A stretch of 64,000 nucleotides of DNA from Dictyostelium discoideum (Eukaryota). Of the stretch, positions 9,304 to 55,187 are shown one piece after another (positions within the stretch are counted from its first letter, which is position 1; each line of letters begins with the position of its first letter). Below the pieces are notes generated by a model, which saw only the letters and a list, made by a program, of their open reading frames with translations, made no database searches and was not told the DNA's origin. The stretch covers positions 4,096,001 through 4,160,000 of the forward strand of contig CM000153.2 of assembly GCA_000004695.1 (NCBI GenBank), read 5' to 3'. The position numbers were made by a program, and so were the translations under genes.

Positions 9304-10351
9304 ATGAATTGGAAATATATTTGTTTAATAAATGTTTTTATAAATTATATTATTCTATTATATTTAAATTTTCGACAAATAAAAACAATTAAAAATAGTA
9401 AAATACCTAAAGAATTTAAAAATCTTTCAATAATAAATAAATCTGAATTTTTAAATTTAAAACAATTAAAATATAATTTAAAGTTTGTATTTTTGTTTAT
9501 AAAAAAAAGTAATTTGAAAATTTATTAATAAAAGATTTTATTTTATAAAAAAAAAAAAAAAAAAAAAAAAAAGAATATTTAAATTTATATCAACATTATA
9601 TAGTTTTATTAGTTTATTAGTATTTATTCTTTATTTATACCCTTTACTTTGGAATTTTTCAAATAATTTATCATCTATTGATAATAACCCTTTAAAAGAT
9701 GAAGTAAGTTTTAAATTTAATTTTTTAATTTTTTTTTTTTTTTTTTATCATTTCTAATTATACTTTTTTTTCTTTTCAATTAAATCATTCTTTTATAGAT
9801 AGTTGCAACAATAGTTTTTTTTTCAATTAAATCATTTTTATCATTAATTTTAAATTTCCCAATTTCATATTATCAAACATTTGTTTTAACAGATGAATTT
9901 AATTCAAGGAATATTAAATTATTTCTACAAGATAAAGCTTTAAATGTTATTTTCTTAGTTATAATTTATATACCATTAGTAACATTATCAATAACAGTTA
10001 TTAGAACTATTGATTTTAGGTATTGTTGGGTTTGTAAGTTTAAAAAAAATAAAAAATAAAAAAAAAATAAAATAAAATTAAAAAAAAAAAAATAAAATAA
10101 AATAAAATAAAAAAAAAAAAAAAAAAAAAACTAATTAATAAATTGTCAATATAAAATTATATAGATTGTACAATAATTTATTTATTATATGAAATTTTTA
10201 TAGATATTTTATATCCATCTTTAATTAAACCAAATTTTTTACCAAATGAATTAATACCAATGCCAGATGGAATTTTAAGAAAATCAATTCTAGAATTATG
10301 TAAAAATTGGTATAAAAAATCAAATTCACCTTCAAAAATTAAAAATAATAA

Positions 10352-10397
<46 letters not shown>

Positions 10398-11075
10398 TTT
10401 AATTTTAATGGTAATGATAATGATAATGATACAGGTGAAGGATGTGATAAAATTAATAATGAAGAAAATCAAATTAAAATATTAATATTAATGGATTATA
10501 AAAATTTTGAAATTAATAATAATCAAGATGATAATCAACAACAACATTTGAATACATATTGTTCATTATTAAATAAGCATATTGTTATTAATGAAAATTT
10601 AATAAAACGATATGATAAAGAAGAGATATTATCAATGGTTGCTCATGAAATCGGTCATTATAAACAACTCGATCAATTGACTAATTTAGTTATACCAACT
10701 TTTAATACTGCCTTGTTTTTATACTTGTTGAATCATTTCATTCAAAATGATATGGCATTTGTCGATTTCGGGTTATCTACAGTATCGTTGTATATGGGTT
10801 TACTATTATTTAGTTTTATTTATTTACCAATGGATACGATTTTCAAATCATTGCAAAATCATTTCATTAGACAACAAGAATATCAAGCTGATTTATTCTC
10901 TCAAAATATAATGGGTTGTAATCAATTCGCTTCACTTTTAAAAATTATTACAAAAGAAAATAATCCAATTTCAATTGATGATTATTGGTATTCTTTATTT
11001 TTTAATCCATATCCAACTTTTTATCAAAGATTTAAATATTTAGAAAATAGTTTAAAAAATAAAAAAATTAATTAA
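9304..11075 (+). CDS. CAAX prenyl protease 1 (Ste24/ZMPSTE24, M48 zinc metalloprotease), four exons
   Basis: Exon 1 is 9304..~9508 (alternative end 9482) and reads YLNFRQIKTIKNSKIPKEFKNLSIINKSEFLNLKQLKYNLKF, matching the yeast Ste24 N-terminus. Exon 2 is ~9621..9703 (alternative start 9604/9613). Exon 3 is 9799..10033 (PISYYQTFVLTDEFNSRNIKLFLQD). Exon 4 is 10204..11075 with PMPDGILRKSILEL, the HEXXH motif VAHEIGHYKQ and a downstream EYQAD. Exon 1/2 boundaries are ambiguous; exons 3–4 are phase-checked. Confidence 0.75.
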
Positions 11076-11381
11076 AAACAAAATGGTTACCATTCATTTT
11101 TTTTTTATATTTTATATCATTGTGTATTTTTGGGTGTTCTATTTTTACTAAATTCATATAAAAAAAAAATAAAAAAATGAAAATGTTCTTAAAGAATTTT
11201 TTTATTTTTTTTTTATTTTGAGTATAAAATTTGAATTGTTTTTATAAATAAAAAAATAAAAAAAAAAAAACTTTTTTTTAAAATAAAAAAAAAAAAAAAA
11301 AAAAGATACTTTTTTTTTTTTTTCATTCTTTCAAACATATTTTTTTTATTTTTTTAATCTTCTTTCAATTAAAAAGAGATA

Positions 11382-14603
<3,222 letters not shown>

Positions 14604-25938: not shown

Positions 25939-26106
25939 AAAATAAAAATAAAAAAATAAAAAACAAAAATAAAAAAACAAAAATAAATTAAAAAAATAAT
26001 AATAATCAAAAGATTTCACACATGATGTGTTTTTTTTCTTTTCTTTTTTTTTTTTTTTTTTTTTTTCTTTTGACCGTTTTGACTTGGTGGTCAAATTTAA
26101 AAAATT

Positions 26107-26471
26107 TTAAACGTTTAATTTTATTCTTTTTTTTGATGAAGTTATAAGTGGTGATGTTGAACCTTTTGGAACAACCTGTTCATCTATAGCCTCATTTAAA
26201 AATGGGTTGATTAAATTATTATTATTATTATTATTGTTATTATTATTATTATTATTATTATTCTGGAAAATAATTATTTTTATAAATAATAAATATTAGT
26301 TTAGATTCAATTTTAATTTTTAATTTTTAATTTTTTTCCCAAATTTAAAAATTTACATACGTTTAAATTTAATGGTTGTATTATTGGCAAATTATTATTA
26401 TTTAAATTATTATTGTTTAAATTATTATTATTATTTATATTATTATTATTATTTATATTATTATTATTTGA

Positions 26472-26534
<63 letters not shown>

Positions 26535-26778
26535 TAAATTATTTAAATTATTGTTTAGATTATTATTACTATTTGCAACAGCCAGTCTCCTTAATAAATC
26601 TCTTTCATTTCTAGGAGTTGTTGGGTTTGATGTGGAATTATTAGGAGTATTTAAAGCACTCAAGGGCGGTGGTGGTTGAGGAAATTGCATTTGTGGTGCA
26701 ACCATAGGTGTTGTAGGAACACTAAATGAGTTTGGTGTCGAAAAATCGTTATTATTATTATTATTATTATTACTATTA

Positions 26779-26819
<41 letters not shown>

Positions 26820-27338
26820 TACATTGGTTTGTTGTTGCTGTGGTAGTTGATCAACTACACTATTATTATTATTTGAAATATCCACTCTAAGATGTGGATG
26901 TTGGTGGTGTTGTTGTTGACCATGATGATGTTGAGGTGAAAGAGTAATATTATTATTATTATTAGGTATTGTTGTAGTAGTTGTTGTTGTTGTTGTAGTT
27001 GTTGTTGTAGGTGGTAATGAGTTTATAGAGATAATTGTATTTGGAGTCATCATTGGTTGAAGTGGTGGAGTTGTAATGGTATTTGGATGATTTAATAGGA
27101 ATGCAGAAGGTTGTGGTTGTAATGGTTGTATTGGTTGATTTACAACTTGATTTTGGTGTTGTTGTTGAAGTTGTTGTTGCTGTTGTTGGAGTAATTGTAA
27201 TTGTTGTTGATGATGCATTTGAATTTGGTGTAATGATAACAAGGATGGAGATGATAGAGGAGATGGTGAGTTTGGATCATTAGGTGGTATTATAAATGGT
27301 GGTACAGTTTGATATTGTTGAGATAACATTGGTTTCAA
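26107..27338 (-). CDS. Q/N/T-rich low-complexity protein, at least two exons; 5' end uncertain
   Basis: The main exon is 27338..26361 (donor AAC|GTATGT). The last exon is 26262..26107 (acceptor CCAG|; ...LINPFLNEAIDEQVVPKGSTSPLITSSKKRIKLNV, stop). The frame stays open upstream of the ORF-track start (which is a TTG), so the true start or another exon lies above 27338. Confidence 0.45.
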
Positions 27339-27419
27339 CGTTGGTGAATAAGTTGGTGTTAAATCCCTTATGAAATTATAAAAAATTATATATTGGAATT
27401 TATTATTTTAAAAATTAAA

Positions 27420-27467
<48 letters not shown>

Positions 27468-27625
27468 TTTCTAATTTTTAATAAACTCTTCTTTTTTTAA
27501 TTTTTTTTTTTTTTTTTTTTTTATCCTTTATTTTTGAAAATTTTAAAAAAAAAAAAATAAAAAATATTATATATAGTAGTGTTAGTATGTATTAATTTTG
27601 AAATAACTTATATATTTATTTATTT

Positions 27626-27665
<40 letters not shown>

Positions 27666-27846
27666 TTATAATGCCATCCCTTTTTATTGAAAAAAAAAAA
27701 AAAAAAAAATTAAATTAAATAAAATAAAAAAGGAAAACTTACATGTAATTCAAATATTTTTAGTATTAATACTAATAAAATAGAAATAGTAAGAGAGAAA
27801 GTATTGTGTTAGTGAGTGTGTTGTGTGAGTGTGTTTTAATTACCCC

Positions 27847-27881
<35 letters not shown>

Positions 27882-27939
27882 AAAGTTAAAAATTATAAAA
27901 AAAAAATTATTTATTTATTTATTTTTTTAATTTATTTTT

Positions 27940-28002
<63 letters not shown>

Positions 28003-30890: not shown

Positions 30891-32029
30891 ATGGAAGAAT
30901 GTTCTCAAATTTCAACAATACCAGATCAAGAATCAATTGATAAAGTTGTAACACAAATTTCACCTCATCAAAAAACAATGGATCCATCGTCAGTGGGGTT
31001 TGTATATCATTGGATGTTTTCAATGATGGCATCAGCTTTAAATTTCAATAAACCAACCCCTTTGCCAACCGATAATATTATATTGGACAACAATGAAAAG
31101 GATAATAGCGATGGTGAAAATTTCATCCGATCTTCATTGGGTAATATAAGACTCTCTGCAAGTAGCGAAGAACCTGAATCCGATCCATTTTATACAAATA
31201 ATCATCATGATAGCAGTGATGACGATAGTGATCAACAAAATCAAGATAAAGAAAACGATGAAATAGTAAATAGTAATAACAATAACAATAATATAAATCC
31301 TAATAAATGTACAAAAAAAGATGAAAATAATAACAATAGTATCAAAACAACACAACATATAAATCAAAATAACTTTTTAACTTTACCTTCTAGTACTACA
31401 AAGAAAACATTAATTTTAGATTTGGATGAAACTTTAGTTCATTCAACATTAAAACCAGTAACACATCATCAAATTACAGTTAAAGTTTTAATTGAAGATA
31501 TGGATTGTACATTTTATGTTATTAAAAGACCACATGTTGATTACTTTTTGGAAAAGGTTTCACAATGGTACGATATAGTAATTTTCACTGCCAGTATGCA
31601 ACAATATGCCGATCCATTACTCGATCAATTAGATACTCATAAAGTTTTCAAAAAAAGATTATTTAGAGATGTATGTATTAATTAATTATTTATTGTATTA
31701 AAAATGAATTTTATTTTAACTTTTTTTTTATTTTATTTTATTTTTTTTTTTTTTTTATTTTTTTTTATTTTTAGTCTTGTTTAGAAAAAGATGGAAATTT
31801 CGTAAAAGATTTATCAATGATTGATCAAGATTTAACTTCAACTATTATTATTGATAATTCACCAATTGCATACTCGAATAACCTTGAAAATGCTTTACCA
31901 ATTGATAATTGGATGGGTGATAATCCATCTGATACTTCTTTGTTATCATTGTTACCATTCTTGGAAATCATTAGACACGTTCAAGATGTTAGAAGTATCC
32001 TCTCTTTAAGGTTATTAAATTCTCAATAA
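30891..32029 (+). CDS. CTD small phosphatase-like protein (FCP1/SCP/NIF family, HAD fold), copy 1, two exons
   Basis: Exon 1 is 30891..31670 (donor AGAGAT|GTATGT). Exon 2 is 31775..32029 (acceptor TTTTAG|). The catalytic motif is LILDLDETLVHS (DxDx[T/V]). The sequence ...YVIKRPHVDYFLEKVSQWYDIVIFTASMQQYADPLLDQLD...RLFRD|SCLEKDGNFVKDLSMIDQDLTSTIIIDNSPIAYSNNLENALPIDNWMGD matches human CTDSP1 (LFRESCVFHRGNYVKDL...IIDNSP). Confidence 0.85.
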
Positions 32030-33789
32030 TTATTGATTAATTTTTAACAGTTTTTTTAAAAAGAAAATAAAAAAAAGGCATCAAAATAAAAAAATAAAAA
32101 TAAAAGTCGATGTTAAATAAAATAAAAAAAAGATATATCTCAGATGTGAAAATAAAAAAAAAAAAAAAAAAAAAAAAAAATTATTTTAATAATTTTTTTT
32201 ATAAAAAGTGGATAAATTTTTAATTAATTGAAATTATTTCCAACTTTATAACTGATTATTATTATAAACAATGAAAGAAATAAAATTTAAAGGAGGTTGG
32301 TTATTTATTATTATTTTTATTTATTTATTTTTTTTTTTTAAAAACAACTATATATTTGTTTAAATATATAACTAAAAATAGTTCAAAATGATAGTTTGAT
32401 TAATTCTATTTATATCATTTTTTTTTATGATTAAAAAAAAATTTAACATAATTTATAATAATATTATTGAAATATATTAAAATAATATACGAAAAAAAAA
32501 AAAAAAAAAAAAAAAATAATAAATAATAAAAAAAAAAAAAAATTAATTTAACACTATTATAACAACAACAAAAAAAAAAAAAAAAAAAAAAAACGGTTTA
32601 TTTCAAACAATTATTTCAACAATAATTAAATTAACCCAATCAACTGGTGGTTCATCAAATTATTTGGATTTTTAATTTTAATTAAATTTTTATTTTTTTT
32701 TTTATTTTTTTTTTTTTTAATTCAAATTGGATTTTCAAAATAAATTTAATTTTAATTTAATTTTATTTTTAAAACATTTCAATTTATTTATTTTTATAAA
32801 TTTATTTTCTTTGTTTATCTCACAAATATTTATAAAAAACAAAACCCAAAAAAAGTAAAAAATTTTAATAATTGTTTATTTCATTTTTTATTTTTAATTG
32901 TTTTTTTTTTTTTTTTTTATTTTAATTTTTTTTTTTTTTTTAATAAAATTATAAAACAGATTAATCTTTGTTCGTTGTTAGTTTTTTTTTTCCCAAAAAA
33001 AATTTTAAATTGCTAATTAAAATTTTTTATTCTTTCATTTTATTATTTTCAAAACAATTGTATACTAGTAATAATATTAATAATAATAATAACAACAACT
33101 ATATTTTTTTTATATTTTTTTCTCGACAATCTTAGATTTCAAATTTCCAATTATATTAAAATTAATTTAAAGCAATAATAATAGATCATTAATAATTTTA
33201 TTTTCTATTTGTTTGTTGATAATTATAAAAACAAATACACATAATAACCAATTATTTAAATTTAATATTTTTTTTTTAAAAAAAAAATAAAAAAAAAAAA
33301 AAAAAAACTTTTAAACAAATAAATTGTTGTTTTAATTTTATTAATATTAATAACATATTCATTAAAATAATAGCAAACAAATTTTATTTATTTATTTATT
33401 TATTTTTTTTTTTTTCATACCAACAACCAATTAACAACATTTTTTTAATTACCAAAGAGAAAATAAAATAATAATATACAAATATTTAAATAATAACAAA
33501 TATATATTTATCACACACAAACCAATATTTTTTTTTTTTTTAAAAAAATTTTTAATTTTTTAATTTAAATTACTACAATACATATCATTTTTTTTTTTTT
33601 TTTTTCATTTTTTTTTTTTTATTAACACACCACCCAGGTAATTATTTTTAGACACACTCATACAAATTCATTATAAATTACTATAAAAAAAATCAATAAT
33701 CTATACTTATTTATTGGTTATTTAGGCAAATTAATTAATTTAAACCTCTGGGGTTAATTTTTTTAAAAAAAAAAAAATTAAAAAAAACC

Positions 33790-33822
<33 letters not shown>

Positions 33823-34108
33823 AAAAAAAATTAAACCATTATTAATTAAATAATAAACAATAAATAAATAAATATAATAAAATAAATAATCAACCACAAT
33901 TTCAAACATTTTCATTTATTAAAAATTACAATAACTCTTATCTTTTTGTATAAAATTAAATAATTTAATAACTTAAAAATATATTTATAAATAAACAGAA
34001 TTCATATAAATAAATTATTTTAAATTAAATATAAATTAATAAATTAATTATTTTTTTATTTCAAAAAAAAAAAGAAATATTTAAAAATAATAATAATAAT
34101 TATAATAA

Positions 34109-35316
34109 ATGGATGAATGTACACAAATTTCAAATGTACCAGATCAAGAATCAATTGAAAAGGTTGTAACACAAATTTCACCTCATCAAAAAACAATGGA
34201 CCCATCTTCAGTGGGCTTTGTTTATCATTGGATGTTTTCAATGATGGCATCAGCATTAAACCTCAATAAATTACCAAACATAAATAATGAAAATAATTTA
34301 ATAATCGATAATAATAATAGTAATAGTATTAATAATAATAATATTTTAAAAAATAAAAAAATAAAATCAGAAAATGACAGTAATAATAATAATAATAATA
34401 TTAATGAAAATAGTACAAATAAAGATGGTGAAAGTTGCATTCAATCTTTAAATGAAATCATTTTATCATCACCAGAGTGTTCATCATCATCATCCTCCTC
34501 CTCATCATTATCATCATCATTAAATATTGAAGAATCCGAAAAAATTAAAAATTGTGTAGATGATTGTGACCATAATCAACATCAAAATGAAAAACAAGAA
34601 AAATGTATTAACCAAGATAATAATCAAAATAATAATAATAATAATACTAGTACAATTCAACATTTTAATGAAATTAACTCTTTAAATATTCAAAATTTAA
34701 ATCAACCAAAGAAAACATTAATTTTAGATTTGGATGAAACTTTAGTTCATTCAACATTAAAACCAGTAACACATCATCAAATTACAGTTAAAGTTTTAAT
34801 TGAAGATATGGATTGTACATTTTATGTTATTAAAAGACCACATGTTGATTACTTTTTGGAAAAGGTTTCACAATGGTACGATATAGTAATTTTCACTGCC
34901 AGTATGCAACAATATGCCGATCCATTACTCGATCAATTAGATACTCATAAAGTTTTCAAAAAAAGATTATTTAGAGATGTATGTATTAATTAATTATAAT
35001 TTTTTTTAAAAATGAATTTTATTTTAACTCTTTATTTTTTTATTTTTTTTATTTTTAGTCTTGTTTAGAAAAACATGGAAATTTCGTAAAAGATTTATCG
35101 ATGATTGATCAAGATTTAACTTCAACTATTATTATTGATAATTCACCAATTGCATACTCGAATAACCTTGAAAATGCTTTACCAATTGATAATTGGATGG
35201 GTGATAATCCATCTGATACTTCTTTGTTATCATTGTTACCATTCTTGGAAATGATTAGACATGTTCAAGATGTTAGAAGTATCCTCTCTTTGAGGTTAAT
35301 TAATAATATGCAATAA
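34109..35316 (+). CDS. CTD small phosphatase-like protein, copy 2 (tandem paralog of 30891–32029), two exons
   Basis: Exon 1 is 34109..34978 and exon 2 is 35059..35316, with the same architecture as copy 1. The first ~50 aa and the whole phosphatase domain are near-identical to copy 1 (one D/H difference in exon 2). The middle low-complexity region differs. Confidence 0.85.
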
Positions 35317-41732: not shown

Positions 41733-44501
41733 ATGGAAGACTTGAAAAAAGAATTAGATAAATTATCAGGACTTGGAAATCAAGTTGAAAATGATGAAAT
41801 ATTTGTTGATAATGTTTCAAATAGTAAAATTTTAACATACAGTTGGGAAGAATTTTATAGTAAATGTAAACAATTTGAAAATGGTGAAGAATTATTATTA
41901 TTATTATTAACATGGGTTGAAATAATAATTAAATTTCAATCAATAATATCAAAGGACAATAATAATATTAATCAATTAAAATTACATAATTCTTGGTTTG
42001 AAAAAAAAAGATTTATTTTAAATAAATTATCAATTTTATCAACATCTGGTAATACATTAATTCAATTTTGTAAAATTTTAAATATTACATCAAATGATTT
42101 AAATAATACTAAAAATGAAGATGAAAATCAAGATGAAAATGAAATTTCAATATCACATTTAATAATTGAATTATCAAAAATGAATAATGAAATTAAAATT
42201 GATCAAATTAAACAACTTTTTAAATTTGGTCTAAATGTTAATCAAATTTATAAATTTAAAACACCATTGGATTGTGCCGCAGAACAAAAGAATATTGAAT
42301 TATTTAAAGAATTGATTGAATTGGGTTGTGGTGAATTTTCATCACATTGTATAATAAATAAATTATTTTATAAACAATTATCGTATGAACAAAAAGTTGA
42401 ATTAAAACCATACATGATGAAATTGTTTAATAGAAATCCAAAACTATCATTCAGAATTTGTTTTGACCAATTATTCCCATCAGAGAAAAATGTGAATGAA
42501 ATTTCATATAAATTTGAAACTTCAACAATGGGTCAAAGATATATAAGTGATGAAATATTTCAAAAGATTTTTCAATTTGGTATAGATTTTAAAAATCAAC
42601 CATCAAATTACTCACGTAGACCAGTTGCATCAGTTGAAGATGAAGTATTGGGGTTAAAATTATATGTTGAATTTGAGCCTGTTGCACCATCAATGACAAA
42701 GGCCTCAACAAGATTCTCACAACATTTATTGCAAATCGATAATTTACCAGATACAGAATTCTCTATAATCACTTTAAATAATGGTACAACCTATCCTTTA
42801 TTAATAATGCAAAATGTTTATAATGCTGAAAGTTTATTAAAATTATTACAATCAAAAACACAAAATGATTTACAAAAAATTGAAAATATTGACCCATTAA
42901 GTATCTCAAAATTAATTACATCAACAATTTTAATAAATCCAAGTGGTGGTTCATTATCTGATTATTTAATTTCACCAATTTTAAAAAATGATCAACAGCA
43001 ACAAAAGTATAATATTATACCAATTAATACAGATCAACCATTTGTTGAATCATCAAATGTTAGTATTGGTTTGTTCTTTTTAAATCAAATGAATGATCAA
43101 GTTCATCCACATTTAATTAAATTAATTAAATCAATTGATATACATCAATTTTTAACAGAATGGAGATTAACATTAAAACAACTTCATGAATTTTCAGTTG
43201 ATTTAATTTATAATAAAAATATTGAAAAATTAAATAATGGTATTGATGGTGGCAGTGGTGGTGGTGGTAATGGTGGTGATAATGGTGATTTAACAAAATT
43301 AAGATATGCTGGTATTATACCTGGTACTATTTTAACAATGTATTCAAAATTAATTACATTAAAGAATGAATTATTAAAAGAAAGAAAAAAACCAATAACT
43401 CATTGGAAATTATTATCAATTTTAGAACCAAAAGTTGCAGCTCGTTATTCCCAATTCATTATTGAACAACAAATTTCAACCAATTCTTCAATTATTCAAA
43501 GTTATCAAAATTTTAATCAAAAATCAATTTTTTCAATTTTTACTGAAACTTTTAAATTTAACAATCAACAACAACAACAACCATTGGAAATTGATGTAAA
43601 TCGTGAAATTGAAAATGAAGAATTAATATTTTTAAAATTTATTAATACAAAACATATAATTAATGAAGATATTTTAAAAATTTCAAAATTAACACCAGCA
43701 ACAATTCAAAAAATTATAAAAACTTTAGATTTTTCAAATTATGATAATAAAATTATAAATTGTTTATTTAAAAATATTTTACAACAAAATGGTTCAATTA
43801 AAGAATTATTTATAAAGAATTGTAAATCGTTAACTTTTGAAACATTAAAATCATTTTCAATATTTCAAGAGTTATATATTGGATCAATTAGAAAATTATC
43901 AATTATTGGGTGTTCAAAAATTTATGAAATCTCTGAAAAAGGTGTTTTTAATAGTTTATTTGGTACAACTAAACAATTAACAATGAATTCATTAGTTAAA
44001 TTAGAAGTTGATAGATGTAGTAGTTTAACCACTTTAAAATTAAATACACCAAATTTATTAACTCTTAGTGCAATTGATTGCTCCCAATTAAGGGTTTTTG
44101 ATGTTTTTGCACCAAAATTAAAAAAATTAAGAATTCAAGCTAATAAAGTTGGTTTAGAAACTTTTAATGTAATTTCAACATTTTCAAATTTAGAGTATTT
44201 AGATATTAGTAGAATTGTATCACCATCAACAAATGATTCAATCATTTCATTAGATTTGGATTTATGGAAGAATATTGAAATTTTAATATCAAAAGATGTT
44301 TTATCAATTGATAAAGTTATCATATCAAAATTAGAAAAATTAAAAACTTTAGATTTTACTGGTTGTTCTTCATTAAGAGAATTTGAAATTAAAAATGAAA
44401 CAATAATTATCAATAATTGTCCAAATTTAAAAACTTTATCTTTAAAAGGTACATTGATTAATAATGATCAAAAATATCATTTATTACAAACAATTTCCTA
44501 A
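41733..44501 (+). CDS. Hypothetical protein with C-terminal cysteine-containing leucine-rich repeats (FBXL-like LRR), paralog A
   Basis: A single 922-aa ORF. The C-terminal third has LRR-like units (CKSLTFETLKSFSIFQELYIG..., CSSLTTLKLNTPNLLTLSAIDCSQLRVFDV..., CSSLREFEIKNETIIINNCPNLKTLSLKG). The N-terminal two-thirds are collinear with the next gene (HNSWFEKKRFILNKL, DCAAEQKNIELFKELIELGCGE, INPSGGSLSDYLISPI, KERKKPITHWKLLSILEP). Confidence 0.7.
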   Translation: MEDLKKELDKLSGLGNQVENDEIFVDNVSNSKILTYSWEEFYSKCKQFENGEELLLLLLTWVEIIIKFQSIISKDNNNINQLKLHNSWFEKKRFILNKLSILSTSGNTLIQFCKILNITSNDLNNTKNEDENQDENEISISHLIIELSKMNNEIKIDQIKQLFKFGLNVNQIYKFKTPLDCAAEQKNIELFKELIELGCGEFSSHCIINKLFYKQLSYEQKVELKPYMMKLFNRNPKLSFRICFDQLFPSEKNVNEISYKFETSTMGQRYISDEIFQKIFQFGIDFKNQPSNYSRRPVASVEDEVLGLKLYVEFEPVAPSMTKASTRFSQHLLQIDNLPDTEFSIITLNNGTTYPLLIMQNVYNAESLLKLLQSKTQNDLQKIENIDPLSISKLITSTILINPSGGSLSDYLISPILKNDQQQQKYNIIPINTDQPFVESSNVSIGLFFLNQMNDQVHPHLIKLIKSIDIHQFLTEWRLTLKQLHEFSVDLIYNKNIEKLNNGIDGGSGGGGNGGDNGDLTKLRYAGIIPGTILTMYSKLITLKNELLKERKKPITHWKLLSILEPKVAARYSQFIIEQQISTNSSIIQSYQNFNQKSIFSIFTETFKFNNQQQQQPLEIDVNREIENEELIFLKFINTKHIINEDILKISKLTPATIQKIIKTLDFSNYDNKIINCLFKNILQQNGSIKELFIKNCKSLTFETLKSFSIFQELYIGSIRKLSIIGCSKIYEISEKGVFNSLFGTTKQLTMNSLVKLEVDRCSSLTTLKLNTPNLLTLSAIDCSQLRVFDVFAPKLKKLRIQANKVGLETFNVISTFSNLEYLDISRIVSPSTNDSIISLDLDLWKNIEILISKDVLSIDKVIISKLEKLKTLDFTGCSSLREFEIKNETIIINNCPNLKTLSLKGTLINNDQKYHLLQTIS

Positions 44502-44755: not shown

Positions 44756-47700
44756 ATGGAGAAAGTAAAGATATTAAAAGAATACCTTGAAAATAATAAT
44801 TATACAATTATTAAAGAGCAAGTTGGACAATTAGTAAAAGATGTTCATGAAGTTGGTAGAATTCTTTATTATTTAGAATTGGATACTATTTTAATAGAAG
44901 GTGATAGTAAGCTATTAGAATGGGTGGAAATTATGTGCCCTTTACACTTTTTAATTGAAGATATTTTAAAAAACAATGATGATAGTCTTATTCAAGAAAT
45001 TCCAAGGTTAACATATCATAGTTCTTGGTTTCCAAATGGTAAATTGATTTTAAATAAACTTGCAAATCTTCCAACACCAGGTATTGTGTTGTCACAATTT
45101 TGTAATATTTTCAAAATAACTCTAAGAGAATTAAATTCTGTAAAAGAGAAAGACGAGGAATCAAATACTGAATCAGTTTTACATTTAATTGTAAATTCGA
45201 ATAATACCAAAACCGATATGAAAATCGATCAAATTAGAGAATTAGTAATGATTGGAACAAATATTAATATCATGGAGTATAATGGTATTGAACAATACAC
45301 AATTTTAGATTGTGCGGCATCAAAAAAGAATATAGAATTATTTAAAGCGTTAATTGATATGGGTGCAGGTGAAAACGCTGCTCGTTCAAATAATTTCCAA
45401 TTTTATAAAGAATTATCATATGAAACTAAAATACATATTAAACCATACATGAAGAAATTATTACAAAGAAATTTAATGGTATATAATAAACTTTGTTTTG
45501 AACAATTATTCCCAAATATTAATTATAAAATTAAAACTGCATCATATGGTATTAGATCAATTACCCATAATCAATTCAAATTATTATTTTCTGACAATAA
45601 TAATTTTCCATTTGGTAGTACAACAACAACAACAACAACTTCTACGAATACAAATAATAAATTAAAATTAATTGAAGATGAAAAATTAGGTTTAGCTATG
45701 ATAGTTGAATTTGAACCAAAATTTCCAACAATTGATAAACTAAAAAATAGATTAATTCAAGGAATTTTAGGACTTGATATTTTCTTGGAATCAGAGTTTT
45801 CATTAATTAAATTTAATAAAACAACTATTTACCCAATTTTAATTAAAGAGCATCAAGGTAGTACCAAAAATAATTTAATTTTACATGATTTAATTTTATC
45901 CAATGATACAGATAAATTGAATAATTTAGATTCTTCAAGTATTTCAAAATTAATTGTTTCCTCAATTGTAGTTAATCCAAGTGGCGGAACATTATCTGAT
46001 TTTATAGTTTCACTAATTGGTGATGAAAATAATAAACATGCTCAAAAATATAAATTAATTCCAATTAATACAGGTTCAGCATTTTCAGCAGCTGATAAGG
46101 TTGGTACATTTTTATACTTTTTAAAAGAAATGAATGATACAGTTCATTCTGATGTTATAGATAAAATTGAAAAATTAGATGTACATGAGTTCTTATCAAA
46201 ATGGTTTGGCGCAATTCCCACTTATAATTTATTATCACAAAATTTAGTTTCAAATAAGAAAATATATAATATTGAGCAAGGACAAAATGAATACTATGTT
46301 GGTGCTCAATTTCAACCAGATGAAATAAGATCTTTATATTCAAAATTATTTAAATTAAAGAGTTCATTATTAAAGAAAAGAAAAAAACCAATCACTCATT
46401 GGAAATTATTAGAAATACTTGAACCTATAACCTATTACATATATAAAAAACATATTGAAAAAACATCAAATCAATCACTTATCAAAAGGTGTGAAGAATT
46501 CTACCAAAAACAAAATGTTCTACCACAACTAAGGAATTATAACCCAAATTTACAAGTTGATTATCAGATGGAAATAGATAAAATCAAAAATGAAGAAAAT
46601 TTAATTAAGAATTTAAAATCAAAATTTCCACAAAATTTAGAAAATAAGTTTTTATTTAATCAATTAACTTATATAAATGCTGAAAAGTTATTTAAATCTT
46701 TAGATTTTTCAAAATTATCAAAAGATCAATTCCCAAATTATATAAAGAATTTATTTGAAAATCAAGATGAAATTAGAAAATTCCAAATTTTAAATTGTAA
46801 ATTTTTTACAACAGATAATTTATTAAATTCAAAATTTTTAAATAGTATTACAAAGTTATCAATAGTAAATTGTTCATCTTTCAAAGGATTACATGGAAAA
46901 TCTACATATTTATTTGCCAAACTATCAACTTCTTCGGAATTTTTGAAATTGAAATCATTGGTTGAATTGAAAATTATAGGTTGTAAAGAATTTATAACTT
47001 TAAAAATTGATACACCAAATTTAAAATATCTATCAACTCGCAATTGTCCAAATTTATCTGATTTTGATGTTAAATCACCAAAATTAAAGAAATTAGAAAT
47101 TCAAGGTAATATGGTGGGTAAAATTATGTTTGATGTAATTTCAAATTTTAAAAAATTAAAATATTTAGATATTAGTAGAATTATACCACCAAAATCAAAT
47201 ATAGCAGATAATAAACCTTTAAAAAAAAATTAGATTTAAGAAATTGGGAATTCCTTGAAATTTTAATAGCAAATAATGTAACGGCAATTGAAAAAATTAA
47301 AATTTCAAATAATAAAAAGTTAAAAGTTTTAGATTTAGATGGTTGTTCTTCATTATCAAAAATTTCAAGTGATTGTTGTTGTAATGTTTTAGAAACATTA
47401 AAAACGAATAATACAATTATTAAAAATGATAATACTCAACTATTAACAGAATTAAATAATAGTAAAACGATATTTATCTATGGTGATTGTAATACTAAAA
47501 ATCAATTAAAATCAATAATTATTAAAAAAACACAACAATATTTAATTATAAATGAAAAACTTTATAAATTAAAATTTGAATGTGAAAATTATGATAATCA
47601 AACTATTCCAAAATCAAATGATTCAATCTTATTTTTAATTGATGAAAGCATTCCAATAATTGATGCCAAAAATCAAATTTTTAAACTAACAAAAGAAATC

Positions 47701-48792: not shown

Positions 48793-49654
48793 AAATTTAA
48801 AAAACTAAAATAATAATAAAGAGTTTTTTTTTTTTTTTTTTTATAAAATCAATGATAAAATTTATAAAAAAATAAACATTTTATAAAAAAAAAAAAAAAT
48901 ATCTTTTGTAATTATTTAAATAATTCAAAAAAATGTTTTTTTTTTTTTTTTTTTTATAAAATAATGATATAGTGCGTTTTGAGCAAATTAATCATAAAAA
49001 AAAAAATTAAAAAAACTCACTCAAGTCAAACAAAAAAAAAAAAAAAAAAAAAAAAAAATAAAAAAAGGGTTTAAACTCGCTATAAAATATTAAAAAACTT
49101 TCTAAGTTAATTATTATGAATATTTTTTTTTTTATTTTAAAAATTTAAAACTATACAATAAAAATATTTTATACTAAAATTTTTTTGGAAATAAAATAAA
49201 TTGAATTTTATTTATTTATTTATTTTTATTATTATTATTATTATTATTAATATTATTATTATTATTATTTTTAAAATAAAAAAAAAATTAAAAAAGTTAT
49301 CTTTGTTTTGATAAAAGATTTTATTTTTATTTTATTTTATTTTTCTTTTTTTAATTTAAAAAAAAGTGGGGGAAAATATCTCCAACTATTTTTCTTTTTT
49401 TAATTTAAAAAAAAGTGGGGGAAATGTTTCACAGTTAAAAAAAAAAAATTCACTCATTATTTTAACCAACTATAAATAAAATGAAATACAATTGGCCATA
49501 GTTTTTATAATAATAAACCATCACATCTACATTTTTGGTTAAAATGATCATTTTTTATTTTAAATAAAAAAACCACTTGCAGTTTATAATAATAAAAACA
49601 ATTAAAAAAACATAATTAATAAAACCAAAATAATAATATAATTAATTATATTTA

Positions 49655-49915
49655 TAATTGTAATAGAAATAGAAATAGAAATAGAAATAGAAATATTAAT
49701 AGCAATAGCTATATAGTAGTAATGGTAATAGTAATAGCAATAGAAATATAGTAGTAATAATTGTAATAATTGTAATAATTGTAATAATAGTAATAACAGT
49801 AATAGCAATAGAAATATAGTGGTAATAGTAATAATAGTAATAGCAATATAGTAGTAATAATAGTAACAATAGTGATAGCAATAGCAATATAGTAGTAATA
49901 ATAGTAATAATAATC
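49655..49915. repeat. Complex minisatellite (AATAGAAATAG / GTAATAGCAATAG variants), immediately 5' of the transposase start
   Basis: Direct reading: (aatagaaatag)n gives way to degenerate agtaataatagtaatagcaatata units. Confidence 0.8.
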
Positions 49916-49917
49916 TA

Positions 49918-50646
49918 ATGAAACCTAAAAGAAGTTTAACTCACTTAATTGAGCATACTGAGAGAATATACAATGCATTAGAATATGGGGTTAGAATCGG
50001 TAATATAAGTAGAGCTGCTCGTGAAAATGGTTTGACCAGAAATCAACTCAATTATTACCGTAGAGATATCAAAGATAATAGAATTAGACAATCCCATGGC
50101 GGCTCCAGATCTCCAAGTACATTTACTACAGAACAGTATGAACTCTTGGTGGCAACTGTGGTAGCAATGGTTAATGTCCGACCTAATCTCACAATGAGGG
50201 AGATCGCCCAAGAAATTAACTCAGATCAAAATAGTATTTTTTATAAAAAGGTCAACAAATCGAGGATATGTTCAATATTCAAAGAATTAAAATGGAATTA
50301 CCACTCTCCAACCTATAAACAAGTAAGTAAAAAAGTTTTAATATATTAAATTACCAACTATTTGTTAATTTTTTTTTTTTTTTTTTAGGAAAATAAATAC
50401 AAAATTGAAAATTTATTAAAATTATTTTATTTTAATACAATAATTTACAATACTGATTGGAAAAACATTTATTTTTTAGATGAATGCTCATTTTCTTCTA
50501 GAGGTATTATATTTTATTATTTTAGATTGAATATAAATATTTATACTAATTTTTTTTTTTTTTTTTTTTAAAAAATATTTTTAATTAAATAATTGTCTTT
50601 CTTTCCATCCATTCTGAATTCCACTATTAACATTATAAGGTAATTA

Positions 50647-50701
<55 letters not shown>

Positions 50702-51268
50702 TACAAAATAAATAATTAAAACTAATAAGGTTTTTTATTAGGATTAAGGAGATCTAAAGCTGTTGGACCGATTGGAGAGCCGGTTTATGTTACCAATAGC
50801 ACCAGCATTTCTGAGACCTACAATGGGTTTTTCACCATCAGTTTGGATGATTGTTTGTATAAAATCCGTGATAAAACCAATAATACTGAAGACTTCTTTC
50901 AATATGTTAGAGAACTTTTGGAAAGTGGATTTTGCAAGCCTGGTTCATTATTGGTAATGGACAATGCTCCAATTCACGGTGGTATCGAAGCTTTAAATGC
51001 ACTATTTGAATTGTTTAATCAATATTCGGTTCAATTGATATTTCTTCCTTCCTATTCTCCAGAGTTGAATCCCATTGAGCGTTTCTTTGGCCATATCAAG
51101 AACCATTTCTACCGAGAACGTAATTCCCATGGGTCCTTCCTTGATGAGATTATTGACACCATCGATAATTCTCTAATTAAAAACAAAGAACTGTTCATTG
51201 GATTTTATCGCCAAAGCCTAAACTTCTGGTCTGAAAAAAAAAGAAATCAATACCAAAGAAAAAGGTGA
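49918..51268 (+). CDS. Tc1/mariner-superfamily (DDE_3, IS630-like) transposase, three exons
   Basis: Exon 1 is 49918..50322 (HTH region ISRAARENGLTRNQLNYYRR; donor CAA|GTAAGT). Exon 2 is 50389..50503 (acceptor TTTTTTAG|; ...WKNIYFLDECSFSSR, first catalytic D; donor G|GTATTA). Exon 3 is 50742..51268 (acceptor TTATTAG|; ...SLLVMDNAPIHGG...IFLPSYSPELNPIERFFGHIK..., i.e. the DNAxxH and YSP[DE]LNPIE motifs). The spliced product is about 348 aa and phases were checked. Confidence 0.8.
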
Positions 51269-51654
51269 AAAAAGAAAAATAATAAAAAAAAAAAAATAAT
51301 AAAAAAAAAAAAACAAATAAAAAAAAAAAAAAAAAAAAAAAAAAAGTGTTTGATTTGAAAAATTTAAAAAAAAAAATTAAAAAATGTTTGATTTGGATAA
51401 TCCGCACAATAAAATTATAAAAAAAAAATAAAAAAAATAAAAAAAAAACATTGTTTTGAATTATTGGGATAATAACAAAAGATATTTTTTTTTTTTACCC
51501 AGATATTTATTGGATTATTGAGATAATAGCAAAAGATATTTTTTTTTTTTTTTTTTTTTATTTATAAAAGTTGAAGGTTTTTTTTTTTTTTTTCATTCCC
51601 ATTATTTTTTTTTTACACTTAAGATTATAAAATAAATTTACACACAAATAATAA

Positions 51655-52310
51655 TAATTATGTAGATGAAAATCTATTTTGGAAAGTTTATAAAAATTTG
51701 TTTATTAGAGATTTAATATTTGATAAAATCATTTCAACAACAGTCATTTATAAATATGATGATGATAGTCTTAGTGGTGGTAAATTTATTGTACCTACTG
51801 ATAGAGCACAATATTTTAAAATATAATTTCTTTATCATGGATGATTAAAAGAAATTTATGGTCATTATTAAAGTATAAATTAATTCATAATGAAGAATTA
51901 ATTATAAAGAAAAAAGCAGTAGAATTACTATTACAAGAATGTAAACATGATAAAGATTTATTAAAATTATTCTATCAAAACAAGTATTATCAAATGAATC
52001 AAATTGATTTAATTTTAAATTCAATTAAACATTCAAATTTAATGGCATTAAAATTATTCATTGAAAAATATAATTACCAACAGATAATAATTCAATGGAT
52101 ATGGCACTAGAAATTACAAGTAGACAATATTATAGAAATGAAGAAGAACAAAAACAATCATTTGAAATTTTCCAATATTTTTGGGAAAAGAAAAAAGATA
52201 CTGTTCAATGCACTCAATCAGAGTTATTCAATCCAAATAGAAATTATAATACATATATGTTACAATTAATTTTAAATAATCCAAGTTTATATGGTGAATC
52301 TTCACAATCA

Positions 52311-52370
<60 letters not shown>

Positions 52371-54879
52371 ATTGGTTTAATGACATCAAGACAATTTTTT
52401 AATCTTGCAATTATGTCAGTAATACCTGAAAAAATTAAAATTGAATTACTTAATAGAGGATTTGTTAAAAATGAAAAAAGTATATATCGTGATGGTGATT
52501 ATATTGCTAAAACAATTCAAAAGCAATCACCATATCTTCCACAATCAGTTTATAGTTATTTAGAAAAGAGTTATCATTTGAATGAATTATATGAAAATCA
52601 TACCATTTCAGTTTTTTATTTTTTTAAAATATTAATTGAATATCCTGAAAAAGAAGATTCTCTTTCAATTTTAAAAAATTTCGTTAATGTAGCACACAAA
52701 TTTACAGATTTAGAAATTAAATCATATAAAACATTATCAATTAATCCAAAAAGTTATAAACCAAGTCAAAAAGTAGAAATTTTACAAGCTATTTCAAGTT
52801 TTCATTTTACATTGAAAATTAAGATAATAGAATCACTATTTCCGATTGATTCATTAACATTAAAATCTACACGATTCATTTTTGATAAATTAAAATATTC
52901 AATTGATAATGTTGGAACAATAGAACATGTTCCAAATGCAGAATTAATTCCACAAAGTTTTTATCATTTGAATATTATAAAAACAGCAGATGTAGATTTA
53001 CTTGACCAATTTTTAAATGAATTTCATTCAGATGCTGAAAGAAATTTAATATTTAGAATATATGATGAAAATCCATTAAATAAAGATTATTTCAAAGATT
53101 GTTCAATTCAAGATAGTGAAAAGATATCAAAACTCATCGATAGACTATCAAGTGTTAAAGAATTCAATTCAAATTCAAATTCATTTTTAAAATTGTTTAA
53201 AATCAAAACTTTTACCAATTTCGAGTGAATTATATATTTCAAGTTTATTAAAATTTAAAGAAACATCACGTAAACAAACATATATACACGCTAAAGTTTT
53301 AGACCAAGCATTATGTGATTTCTTTTCAGAAAAGAATAATTTAACATCAAATTTAACATCATTCATTAAATTCATTAATTTTAGAACTCTTGCAATTACA
53401 TATCTCATTGAAAAAGTTTTAAATTCCAATGATTTAGAACTTACAGAATTATTATTAAATACAATATGTAATAATAATAACAATAATAATAATAATGGTG
53501 CAGGTATTATAATGGCTCCAGTTTCTTTTAAAACATCCAATCCTGACATAATTAAATTAATCATTTCAAAAAGTAATTGTCATAAATTATTTGATTTTGA
53601 AGGTTTAATTGATACAGTTATTAGCGCCAGCAATGTTTGTAATATTAGTAATCCAAATACTGATTCTCAAACCATTGAATTAATTGAAATTGTTATTGAT
53701 TTTTTACATTCAAATAAAATTTATCAAAGAAATTCAAAAGAAGGATTTGGATTTGGATTTGGATTTGGATTTGGATTTGGAACAACGAATCAACAAGCTG
53801 AAAAAACAATAATTTCCAACGATGCAACAAAGATTGCACTTTTAAAGAAGAAATCCATTGAAATTTTACAACTTTTATTTAAATATAAAAACCTGTTTCA
53901 TTGGGATTCACAATTATTTCCAAAACTTCCAAAATTACCAACTATTCAATTGGATGATGAAATACTTCCAAAATCAGATAAACCAATAATGTCAATTTAT
54001 GAACACCAAGATTTAGAAGACCAAGATATATATCAATGTAGAAGAAGAAAGCCAAAAAATAAACATGGTGGTGGAAGTGGTAGAAGAAGAATTGATACCT
54101 ATGATGACACTGATTATGATGGCACCAATAACAACATTCCCTATATTGGTAGTATTGGTGGTAGTGTTTTTGCAAGTACTGAAGATTCAGTCAATGGTGG
54201 TCTTAGTAGTAGTAATAACAATAATAATGAATTAGGTAGTAATCAAAGTCAATTTATTCTTGGTGGTAATTTTACAGGTTTTAGTGTAAATTATCAGAGT
54301 AAAGATAAAAATAAGATTAGAAATCTATACAATACCAATTTCCTTGATAAATTTAAAACTCATCAAGCTCAATCAATATTTGATTCAATGGATCAATTCA
54401 ATAGAAATAATATGTTTTCATTTATACACTCGAGTAGTAGTGTTTTTCAAGATTCAATATATCATTCAATAAAGAATAGAAGAATAGATGTAATTGAAAA
54501 ATTAATAACTATTCAGATGTTTACAGATGATCATGCAAAATTAATTTATTCAGATTTTTTAAAAAGAATTATTAGAAAAGATGATGGTGTTGATTTAATA
54601 GCTTTTAAATACCTTTTTTCACATAGATTCCTCAAGATATTCAGTACAGAGTTTTTACAAACAATGTCACAAGAATTATTAATTTGTGCTGTTTCAGAAT
54701 GTTGTTTTCATCTTTGTCATTGGTTATTGTCAACAGATAATCCATGCAATGTATATGTTGAATTCTTGCCATTTAAAACAACCTATATTTTGAATGTCGA
54801 GAAAAAATTATCACATTGCGAATCACCAGTTTTCAAAGAATATATGATGAAAAAATTAAAACCTTTTATTAAATACTAA
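51655..54879 (+). pseudogene. Fragmented large ORF (about 1,070 codons in four frame-shifted segments), probably a pseudogene of a Dictyostelium-specific hypothetical protein
   Basis: Segment A is ~51655–51826 (DYKINLHTNNNNYVDENLFWKVYKNLFIRDLIFDKI..., no in-frame ATG). Segment B is 51841–52110. Segment C opens at 52075 (ORF 52095–53228, frame shifted by 1). Segment D opens at 53191 (ORF 53512–54879, same frame as B). Consecutive segments overlap by 16–37 nt and there is no GT..AG pair to splice them, so each junction behaves as a 1-nt indel. Confidence 0.5.
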
Positions 54880-55187
54880 ATAACAAAATAAAAAATAAAT
54901 CATAAAATAAAAATAAATCATAAATAAAAAAATTAAATAAATTAAAAATACACTCAATAATATCCTCATATATTCCTTTTTTTTTTTTTTTTTTTTGTTT
55001 TAAATAAATATCTATAGCAAAAAAATACGCTTTATTATTTTAGTTTTTTAAATTTTTATATATCAACTGTTTTTTAAAAAAATTAATTAAAATAAAAAAA
55101 ATAAAAAAAAATAAAAAAAAAGAAAAAATAGTGGGGTTTGGGAATTTATAATTTATAAATAGTTTTTTTTTTTTTTTTCCCAATTAA

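Follow-up and report, generated by a model that had tools for sequence, protein, structure and literature searches.

Does an intron-containing transposase gene on chromosome 4 of Dictyostelium discoideum belong to a recognisable transposon, and what became of the broken gene directly downstream of it? We addressed these questions in a 64-kb stretch of AX4 chromosome 4 (5.45 Mb), which we call the window, with a GC content of ~20%; all coordinates refer to it unless another locus is named. A sequence-only reading had noticed a Tc1/mariner-like transposase gene there, split into three exons by two introns, and a decayed gene beside it. Our comparison with other genomes points to a low-copy, intron-bearing cut-and-paste element of the IS630/Tc1/mariner type at 48970-51409 with a decayed orphan gene downstream, a reading to which we give a probability of about 85%.

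The comparison drew on a second D. discoideum assembly, GCA_054883475.1, which is 99.7% identical to the window, and on the D. cf. discoideum assembly GCA_054859205.1, the source of the transposase P0004 and of the unit L001. Seven copies of the element were compared: the window copy, L001, L002, L004, L005, L006 and L012. L006 and L012 are copies in GCA_054883475.1 and L005 is a copy from another strain; L010 is the locus in GCA_054883475.1 that is syntenic with the window.

The transposon and its gene

The three-exon transposase gene is DDB_G0286157 of AX4, with the same sequence except for the choice of one splice acceptor. Its parts are as follows.

49918-50322, + strand: transposase exon 1, amino acids 1-135, the predicted N-terminal DNA-binding part
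50323-50388, + strand: intron 1, 66 nt, GTAAGT..TAG
50389-50503, + strand: transposase exon 2, holding the first catalytic Asp, D166, in FLDECSF
50504-50741, + strand: intron 2, 238 nt, GT..AG
50742-51268, + strand: transposase exon 3, with D247 (VMDNAPIH), E286 (NPIE) and the stop codon

The spliced product has 348 aa and is 99% identical to the AX4 protein. The AX4 gene model (352 aa) takes an intron 2 acceptor 12 nt upstream, so that window 50730-50741 adds the residues FLLG; these four residues are absent from all homologs, which support the 348-aa form. In the D. cf. discoideum copy L001, whose protein is 63% identical, both introns interrupt the same codon positions in the same phases, with conserved splice contexts (…YKQ before GT; …SSR before GT … AG before (E/G)L). 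Conservation at this level of protein identity indicates that both introns are ancestral to the family. The P, Ac, Tc1 and Tc3 transposons all have introns, and the sequence-only reading had overstated how unusual introns are in DNA transposons.

Searching the spliced product against DDE_3 and Tc1-type hidden Markov models, a check which that reading had proposed, gave matches above both curated cutoffs: Pfam DDE_3 at E=4.1e-19 and 69.3 bits (cutoff 28.6), and the NCBIfam IS630 transposase model NF033545 at 102.1 bits (cutoff 100), which covers aa 32-300. Together with the GT..AG introns conserved in L001, these matches bear out the Tc1/mariner-like, three-exon gene. At the N-terminus a helix-turn-helix is indicated only by a weak Pfam HTH_8 match (E=0.039); the IS630 model aligns from residue 32. 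The DDE triad is intact: D166 in FLDEC, D247 in MDNAP and E286 in NPIE, the last two separated by 38 residues. Across the aligned Dictyostelium homologs these two are invariant or nearly so, and D166 is kept in every homolog that covers its region, where some models are partial. A sequence search of solved structures returned nothing beyond a marginal match (E=1) in which NPIE aligns with the catalytic-Glu motif of Sleeping Beauty.

Alignment of the flanks to the other copies placed the ends of the transposon at 48970 and 51409 (2,440 bp), with a TA duplication on each side, and not at 49430, where the element had been thought to start. The ends and the repeats inside them are listed below.

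48968-48969, no strand: left TA target-site duplication
48970-49032, + strand: left transposon end, terminus TAGTGCGTTTTGAGCAAATTAATCAT; homology to L006 and L012 starts exactly here
offsets 14-24 and 52-62 from the left tip: two copies of the left-end motif, CAAAT(T/C)AA(T/A)CA / CAAGTCAAACA
51347-51409, − strand: right transposon end, ...TGTTTGATTTG(27 nt)TGTTTGATTTGGATAATCCGCACAA; homology to L006 and L012 stops here
51410-51411, no strand: right TA target-site duplication
49338-49375 and 49387-49424, + strand: two identical 38-nt direct repeats spaced at a 49-nt period, where the transposase promoter is presumed to lie
49586-49914, + strand: complex AT-rich minisatellite with periods of 6, 9, 12 and 18 directly 5' of the ATG, found with Tandem Repeats Finder

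L006 and L012 match the window from ~48966/48968 to ~51412/51423 and not beyond, and L005 behaves likewise. The termini are common to all seven copies and TA flanks both ends of each (7/7), with unrelated DNA further out. Because TA is frequent at ~20% GC, a single case would be weak evidence; the weight lies in the consistency at precisely defined termini. The window copy begins with TAGTGCG… at 48970 and ends with …CGCACAA at 51409, in line with the family consensus T(A/T)GTGCG…CGCACAA. In D. cf. discoideum the unit runs from TA followed by TTGTGCGTTTTGGACAAATCACCC to GGGTGATTTGTCCAAAACGCACAA followed by TA, and the terminal inverted repeats of these copies match at 34/35 positions.

Further inside, the 64 kb contain just two exact matches to the motif TGTTTGATTTG, at 51347 and 51385, which lie 14-24 and 52-62 nt from the right tip; near-matches lie on the other strand at 48984 and 49022, at offsets that mirror those of the right end; the motif was found nowhere else in the window. 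This spacing is kept at both ends of other D. discoideum copies. By analogy with inverted repeat/direct repeat (IR/DR) elements, the doubled motifs are paired putative transposase-binding sites. On the model of Tc1 and Sleeping Beauty, the N-terminal domain of the transposase would bind both copies of the CAAATCAAACA-like motif at either end, 14-24 and 52-62 nt from the tip, and the enzyme would cut at the T(A/T)GTGCG termini and reinsert the element at a TA, which would be duplicated.

The minisatellite 5' of the start codon had been noticed before and is present, as are direct repeats, described earlier as ~45 bp long, which take the form of the 38-nt exact repeats. The direct repeat is single-copy in L006 and the minisatellite is partly common to L005.

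Family copies and a second gene

In D. cf. discoideum an identical 348-aa transposase, P0004, which is 63% identical to that of the window, is encoded at four places. These share a 3.5-kb unit (98.7-99.4% identical) and differ in their flanks save for one local duplication; since two of the four places belong to that duplication, there are at least three independent sites. Full-length members of the family measure 3.4-3.5 kb and carry a divergent two-exon orphan gene, open reading frame 2 (ORF2), of 384-385 aa, with a Cys-rich N-terminus, a K/E-rich coiled-coil-like stretch and a Cys-containing C-terminal domain. ORF2 was found in L001-L004 and L006. Pfam gave no match to it, and all the homologs found for its C-terminal domain lie in genes that adjoin transposase homologs. 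The features that relate these members to the window copy are:

L001 4200-5422, − strand: ORF2, absent from the window
L006 6564-7954, − strand: ORF2, absent from the window
window 49274-49294, no strand: internal deletion junction where ORF2 was removed, defined by the flanking matches to L006

L006 (6211-9616, 3.4 kb) has an ORF2 homolog, 35% identical over 140 aa, and a transposase gene without its 5' end. Window 49210-49273 corresponds to L006 6451-6514 and window 49295-49392 to L006 8070-8167, and the 1.55 kb between these matches in L006 encodes ORF2. Judged from this alignment, the window copy is the converse of L006, with ORF2 deleted and the full transposase ORF kept. L012 is without ORF2 in the same way as the window copy and aligns with it as one collinear block with 14 substitutions in 2.4 kb. 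It lies at a different locus, between actin genes, with TA flanks of its own, which indicates that the short form itself has transposed. L012 corresponds to AX4 DDB_G0272288 on chromosome 2, whose product is identical to that of DDB_G0286157 at 349/352 positions (99%). An AX4-like genome has ~3 copies by our count, and the homologous proteins found number one or two per D. discoideum genome.

Could DDB_G0286157 be a domesticated transposase, a host gene that is no longer mobile? Its ordinary gene identifier, its intact ORF with spliceosomal introns and the low copy number of the family in AX4 would suit such a history. Domesticated transposases have lost their ends and target-site duplication and keep a conserved syntenic position; here, recognisable ends and TA duplications are still present, near-identical copies lie at non-syntenic sites, and the orthologous site of D. 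cf. discoideum has no copy. Moreover, sister copies are truncated in different ways, and 3/4 coding differences between the window and the chromosome-2-type copy are non-synonymous. Domestication is thereby largely refuted and we regard it as very improbable. The mobile-element reading, in turn, extends to activity: the intact transposase genes in AX4, the positions that vary between assemblies and the ~99%-identical copies in the sibling species suggest a possibly active endogenous cut-and-paste transposon in this model organism.

A profile built from the Dictyostelium proteins collected 3,857 representatives at E≤1e-3, of which 587 reach E≤1e-10. Among the ten top matches checked, five were named and all of these were amoebozoan (D. 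cf. discoideum paralogs, D. dimigraforme, Polysphondylium violaceum and a Soliformovum irregulare transcript), and five came from metagenome (JGI/IMG) and sequencing-run (Logan) assemblies. In a single-sequence search the closest matches outside Dictyostelium were from Mucoromycota (Rhizopus, Rhizomucor), at ~30% identity.

Two D. discoideum strains, represented by L007 (GCA_054859385.1) and L008 (GCA_054859355.1), carry a ~60%-identical transposase subfamily with ORF2 remnants, apparently at the same locus in both, between ubiquitin/LYR and p450 genes. No recognisable ends were found in L007 or L008, and the subfamily is probably an old fixed fossil. In a separate protein record, P0036, a chromosome-2-type transposase is fused with downstream actin sequence, which looks like an annotation artefact.

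The decayed gene downstream and the insertion site

Downstream of the transposon lie the remains of an orphan gene restricted to Dictyostelium, in four segments that run from stop to stop, and four lesions.

51632-54879, + strand: pseudogene of the orphan gene, stop at 54877-54879
51623-51823, frame 2: segment A
51820-52107, frame 1: segment B
52074-53225, frame 0: segment C
53191-54876, frame 1: segment D, which shares its frame with B
51632-51634, + strand: start codon ATG→ATA; the D. cf. discoideum ortholog has ATG
~51811-51812, + strand: +2 nt relative to D. citrinum and D. cf. discoideum
between 52073 and 52074, + strand: −1 nt relative to the same two species
~53190-53193, + strand: +1 nt relative to the same two species

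The conceptual 1,024-aa product matches the D. citrinum protein P0029 (945 aa) with 61% identity over 97% coverage; further homologs are P0030 of D. cf. discoideum and P0031 of D. firmibasis. P0029 is intact and collinear with the window through frames 2, 1, 3 and 1, that is, through all four segments. A better ortholog than P0030 lies 8 kb from it in the same D. cf. discoideum locus, L011: its DNA is 90% identical to 51647-53733, and it has an ATG start and an uninterrupted ORF of >706 codons across all three indel sites. P0030 was accordingly rejected as the ortholog and is a paralog. L011 thus holds the orphan gene as two inverted paralogs ~8 kb apart, at 1-2205 (−) and 9988-12200 (+). The genomic surroundings of the homologs show no synteny with AX4 in either D. 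citrinum or D. cf. discoideum; at the D. citrinum locus (L009) none was found outside the gene. No Pfam family was found for the pseudogene product.

The loss of the start codon and three frameshifts relative to two species confirm that the adjoining gene has decayed, as the sequence-only reading had proposed. Its four segments, with B and D in one frame, also stand; its three 1-nt frame changes do not, since one of them is a +2 insertion.

Each of the three indels falls in a short A/T run, a type of sequence in which sequencing errors are common, so that the gene might still be functional, the frame changes being assembly errors or being bypassed by tiny introns or programmed frameshifting. 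An automatic annotation of GCA_054883475.1 did bridge them with introns. L010, however, is base-for-base identical to the window over 51623-54879 and reproduces every lesion, which argues against errors in the AX4 assembly; only the lengths of long non-coding homopolymers differ between the two. The start codon is mutated as well, and the indels lie within coding sequence conserved in two other species, where an intron would delete conserved residues. No D. discoideum protein was returned for the orphan gene, a weak point because the same search missed known relatives. We consider a functional gene extremely unlikely: on the sequence evidence, 51632-54879 is a true young pseudogene of a fast-evolving orphan gene. 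The annotation in question (L010 3616-8751, window ~49754-54889) joins transposase and pseudogene in a 1310-aa model, which looks like an artefact.

The transposon inserted into a host inverted repeat upstream of this gene.

48899-48930, + strand: left arm of the host inverted repeat around the insertion
51454-51485, with a tandem copy at 51508-51539, − strand: right arm(s) of the same repeat

At the transposon-free site of D. cf. discoideum these arms adjoin each other, which marks them as belonging to the host and not to the element. This ~80-nt repeat is centred on the transposon, and its right arm is tandemly duplicated in AX4; the empty site has one right arm and a left arm that is more degenerate, and the flanks of other copies are not palindromic. 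The repeat could be an old foldback element or miniature inverted-repeat transposable element, or a product of repair. A longer inverted repeat of 67-110 nt (48888-48995 / 51384-51496) was considered as the element's own and rejected, since the ends of copies elsewhere fall at 48970 and 51409 and the outer arms of this repeat are host DNA that is also found at the empty site.

When the element is excised in silico, its flanks align as a continuous stretch with the ~500-bp region upstream of the intact D. cf. discoideum ortholog, and the alignment of the right flank and the gene is robust. The former start codon lies 222 bp downstream of the element's right end, and the intergenic stretch that holds the insertion is AT-rich and palindromic. 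D. cf. discoideum, the sole species that showed the orthologous site upstream, has ~500 bp of intergenic DNA there, no transposon and an intact gene, a correlation between insertion and gene state that rests on very few genomes. By disrupting the promoter, the insertion may have set off the decay, a plausible link that we infer. Alternatively, the decay had nothing to do with the transposon, and a weakly constrained orphan gene died with the insertion as a bystander. Fast evolution is seen in the intact gene too, and its homologs, which have paralogs, occupy differing genomic contexts, so that the family looks dispensable; the position of the insertion inside the ~500-bp intergenic region, so near the start codon, and the intact gene at the empty site speak against coincidence. 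We give the bystander explanation even odds.

Several observations weigh against our reading of a cut-and-paste element beside a gene in decay. The terminal inverted repeats of the window copy are imperfect, matching at ~17/26 positions, and its transposase has two private changes, E174G and Y291H, at positions where all other homologs have E and Y; to judge by these residues, the chromosome-4 transposase may be impaired, a less fit copy than the chromosome-2-type. Taken by itself, the alignment of the left flank to the empty site is ambiguous, being AT-rich with local repeats. GCA_054883475.1 is near-identical to AX4 and so confirms the sequence but is silent on wild populations. The ratio of nonsynonymous to synonymous substitution rates (Ka/Ks) is barely raised on the AX4 branch (0.59 for AX4 vs D. 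cf. discoideum, 0.51 for D. citrinum vs D. cf. discoideum), with no clearly relaxed selection there, so that the decay is recent. Finally, splicing, transcription and mobility of the element are predictions from its sequence.

Setting and known systems

The rest of the window does not fit the transposon-rich graveyard that the first reading had imagined: the remaining large ORFs encode unremarkable host proteins (an ABC transporter, M48 and M18 peptidases, a Roco kinase, a WD40 protein and NIF phosphatases), and the absence of further end motifs points the same way. No tRNA genes were found in the 64 kb. Otherwise this is an ordinary, gene-dense region that holds a single transposon and a single young pseudogene. 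Two adjacent large ORFs at 41733-44501 and 44756-47233 (922 and 825 aa) look like tandem paralogs, with common motifs such as KKPITHWKLL.ILEP; the 922-aa ORF has no Pfam match. The neighbouring ORFs at 30891-31685 and 34109-34993 each contain a NIF-type (CTD-like) phosphatase domain and are probably a tandem duplication. GC skew reaches +0.34 to +0.60 at 26001-28000 and −0.53 at 33001-34000, both very AT-rich.

A bolder interpretation takes the family as an uncatalogued, still active two-gene Tc1/IS630-like lineage of Amoebozoa outside the three classical D. discoideum families, with the transposase alone enough for mobility, ORF2 a new element-specific accessory protein and the chromosome-4 insertion a promoter insertion that led to gene death. 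Under this interpretation the movement of ORF2-less copies means that the transposase suffices. We put it forward tentatively and think it rather doubtful as a whole. If it were true, an active lineage would be a candidate for a native cut-and-paste tool in Dictyostelium genetics, and the chromosome-4 insertion would be a promoter insertion caught in the act of ending a gene. The locus also exposes problems of annotation, in that a transposase is filed as an ordinary host gene and is fused with a pseudogene in one new assembly.

The decayed gene resembles other in-place pseudogenes beside transposon insertions in its frameshifts, its lost start codon and the intact ortholog in a sister species; it shows no unusual difference from them, and its gene family is without known domain or function.

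Compared with the IR/DR organisation of Sleeping Beauty and Tc3, the element likewise has two putative binding motifs per end, placed symmetrically at offsets 14-24 and 52-62. It differs in that the window ends measure ~62 bp, against inverted repeats of 200-250 bp, and that binding is only predicted. Similarity to the Sleeping Beauty transposase itself is limited to the NPIE motif (E=1).

The sequence-only reading had called the gene typical of the DDT-type elements of Dictyostelium, which raises the alternative that the transposon belongs to one of the classical families DDT-A, DDT-B or DDT-S. The one point in favour is that DDT elements, too, are DNA transposons whose ends are terminal inverted repeats; no tool result supports membership. 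Against it, the protein passes the curated DDE_3 and IS630 thresholds, and no more than one or two homologous proteins were found per D. discoideum genome. Reportedly, Tdd, DDT and thug elements make up 0.5, 0.9 and 0.1% of the D. discoideum genome, and their transposases have no significant similarity to known ones (PMC5633606); a literature search on DDB_G0286157 and on descriptions of DDT elements returned nothing beyond this one review. The attribution to DDT therefore fails on copy number (~3, against a multi-copy family at ~0.9% of the genome) and on the published description of the transposase, and we find membership quite unlikely. With DDT, Tdd and thug the window family has in common the host and a class II organisation with terminal inverted repeats; it is clearly IS630-like, with ~3 copies, and is set apart from them by published description only.

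Among known systems the element stands nearest to IS630/Tc1/mariner transposons, with a single ~350-aa DDE transposase bearing the motifs DE…, …DN.P.H… and …SP.LNPIE, a TA target-site duplication, short terminal inverted repeats and a cut-and-paste architecture. It differs from them in its ~30% identity to the nearest non-amoebozoan matches (Rhizopus, Rhizomucor), in its spacing of 38 residues from the second Asp to the Glu (34 in Tc1 and Sleeping Beauty), in its two conserved spliceosomal introns and in the extra orphan gene of its full-length members. It counts as a new low-copy member in a well-known superfamily, beside a young pseudogene, both of them ordinary kinds of feature; as a clear IS630/Tc1-type family, it makes a small addition to a D. 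discoideum catalogue of Tdd, DDT and thug, with which it was compared by description.

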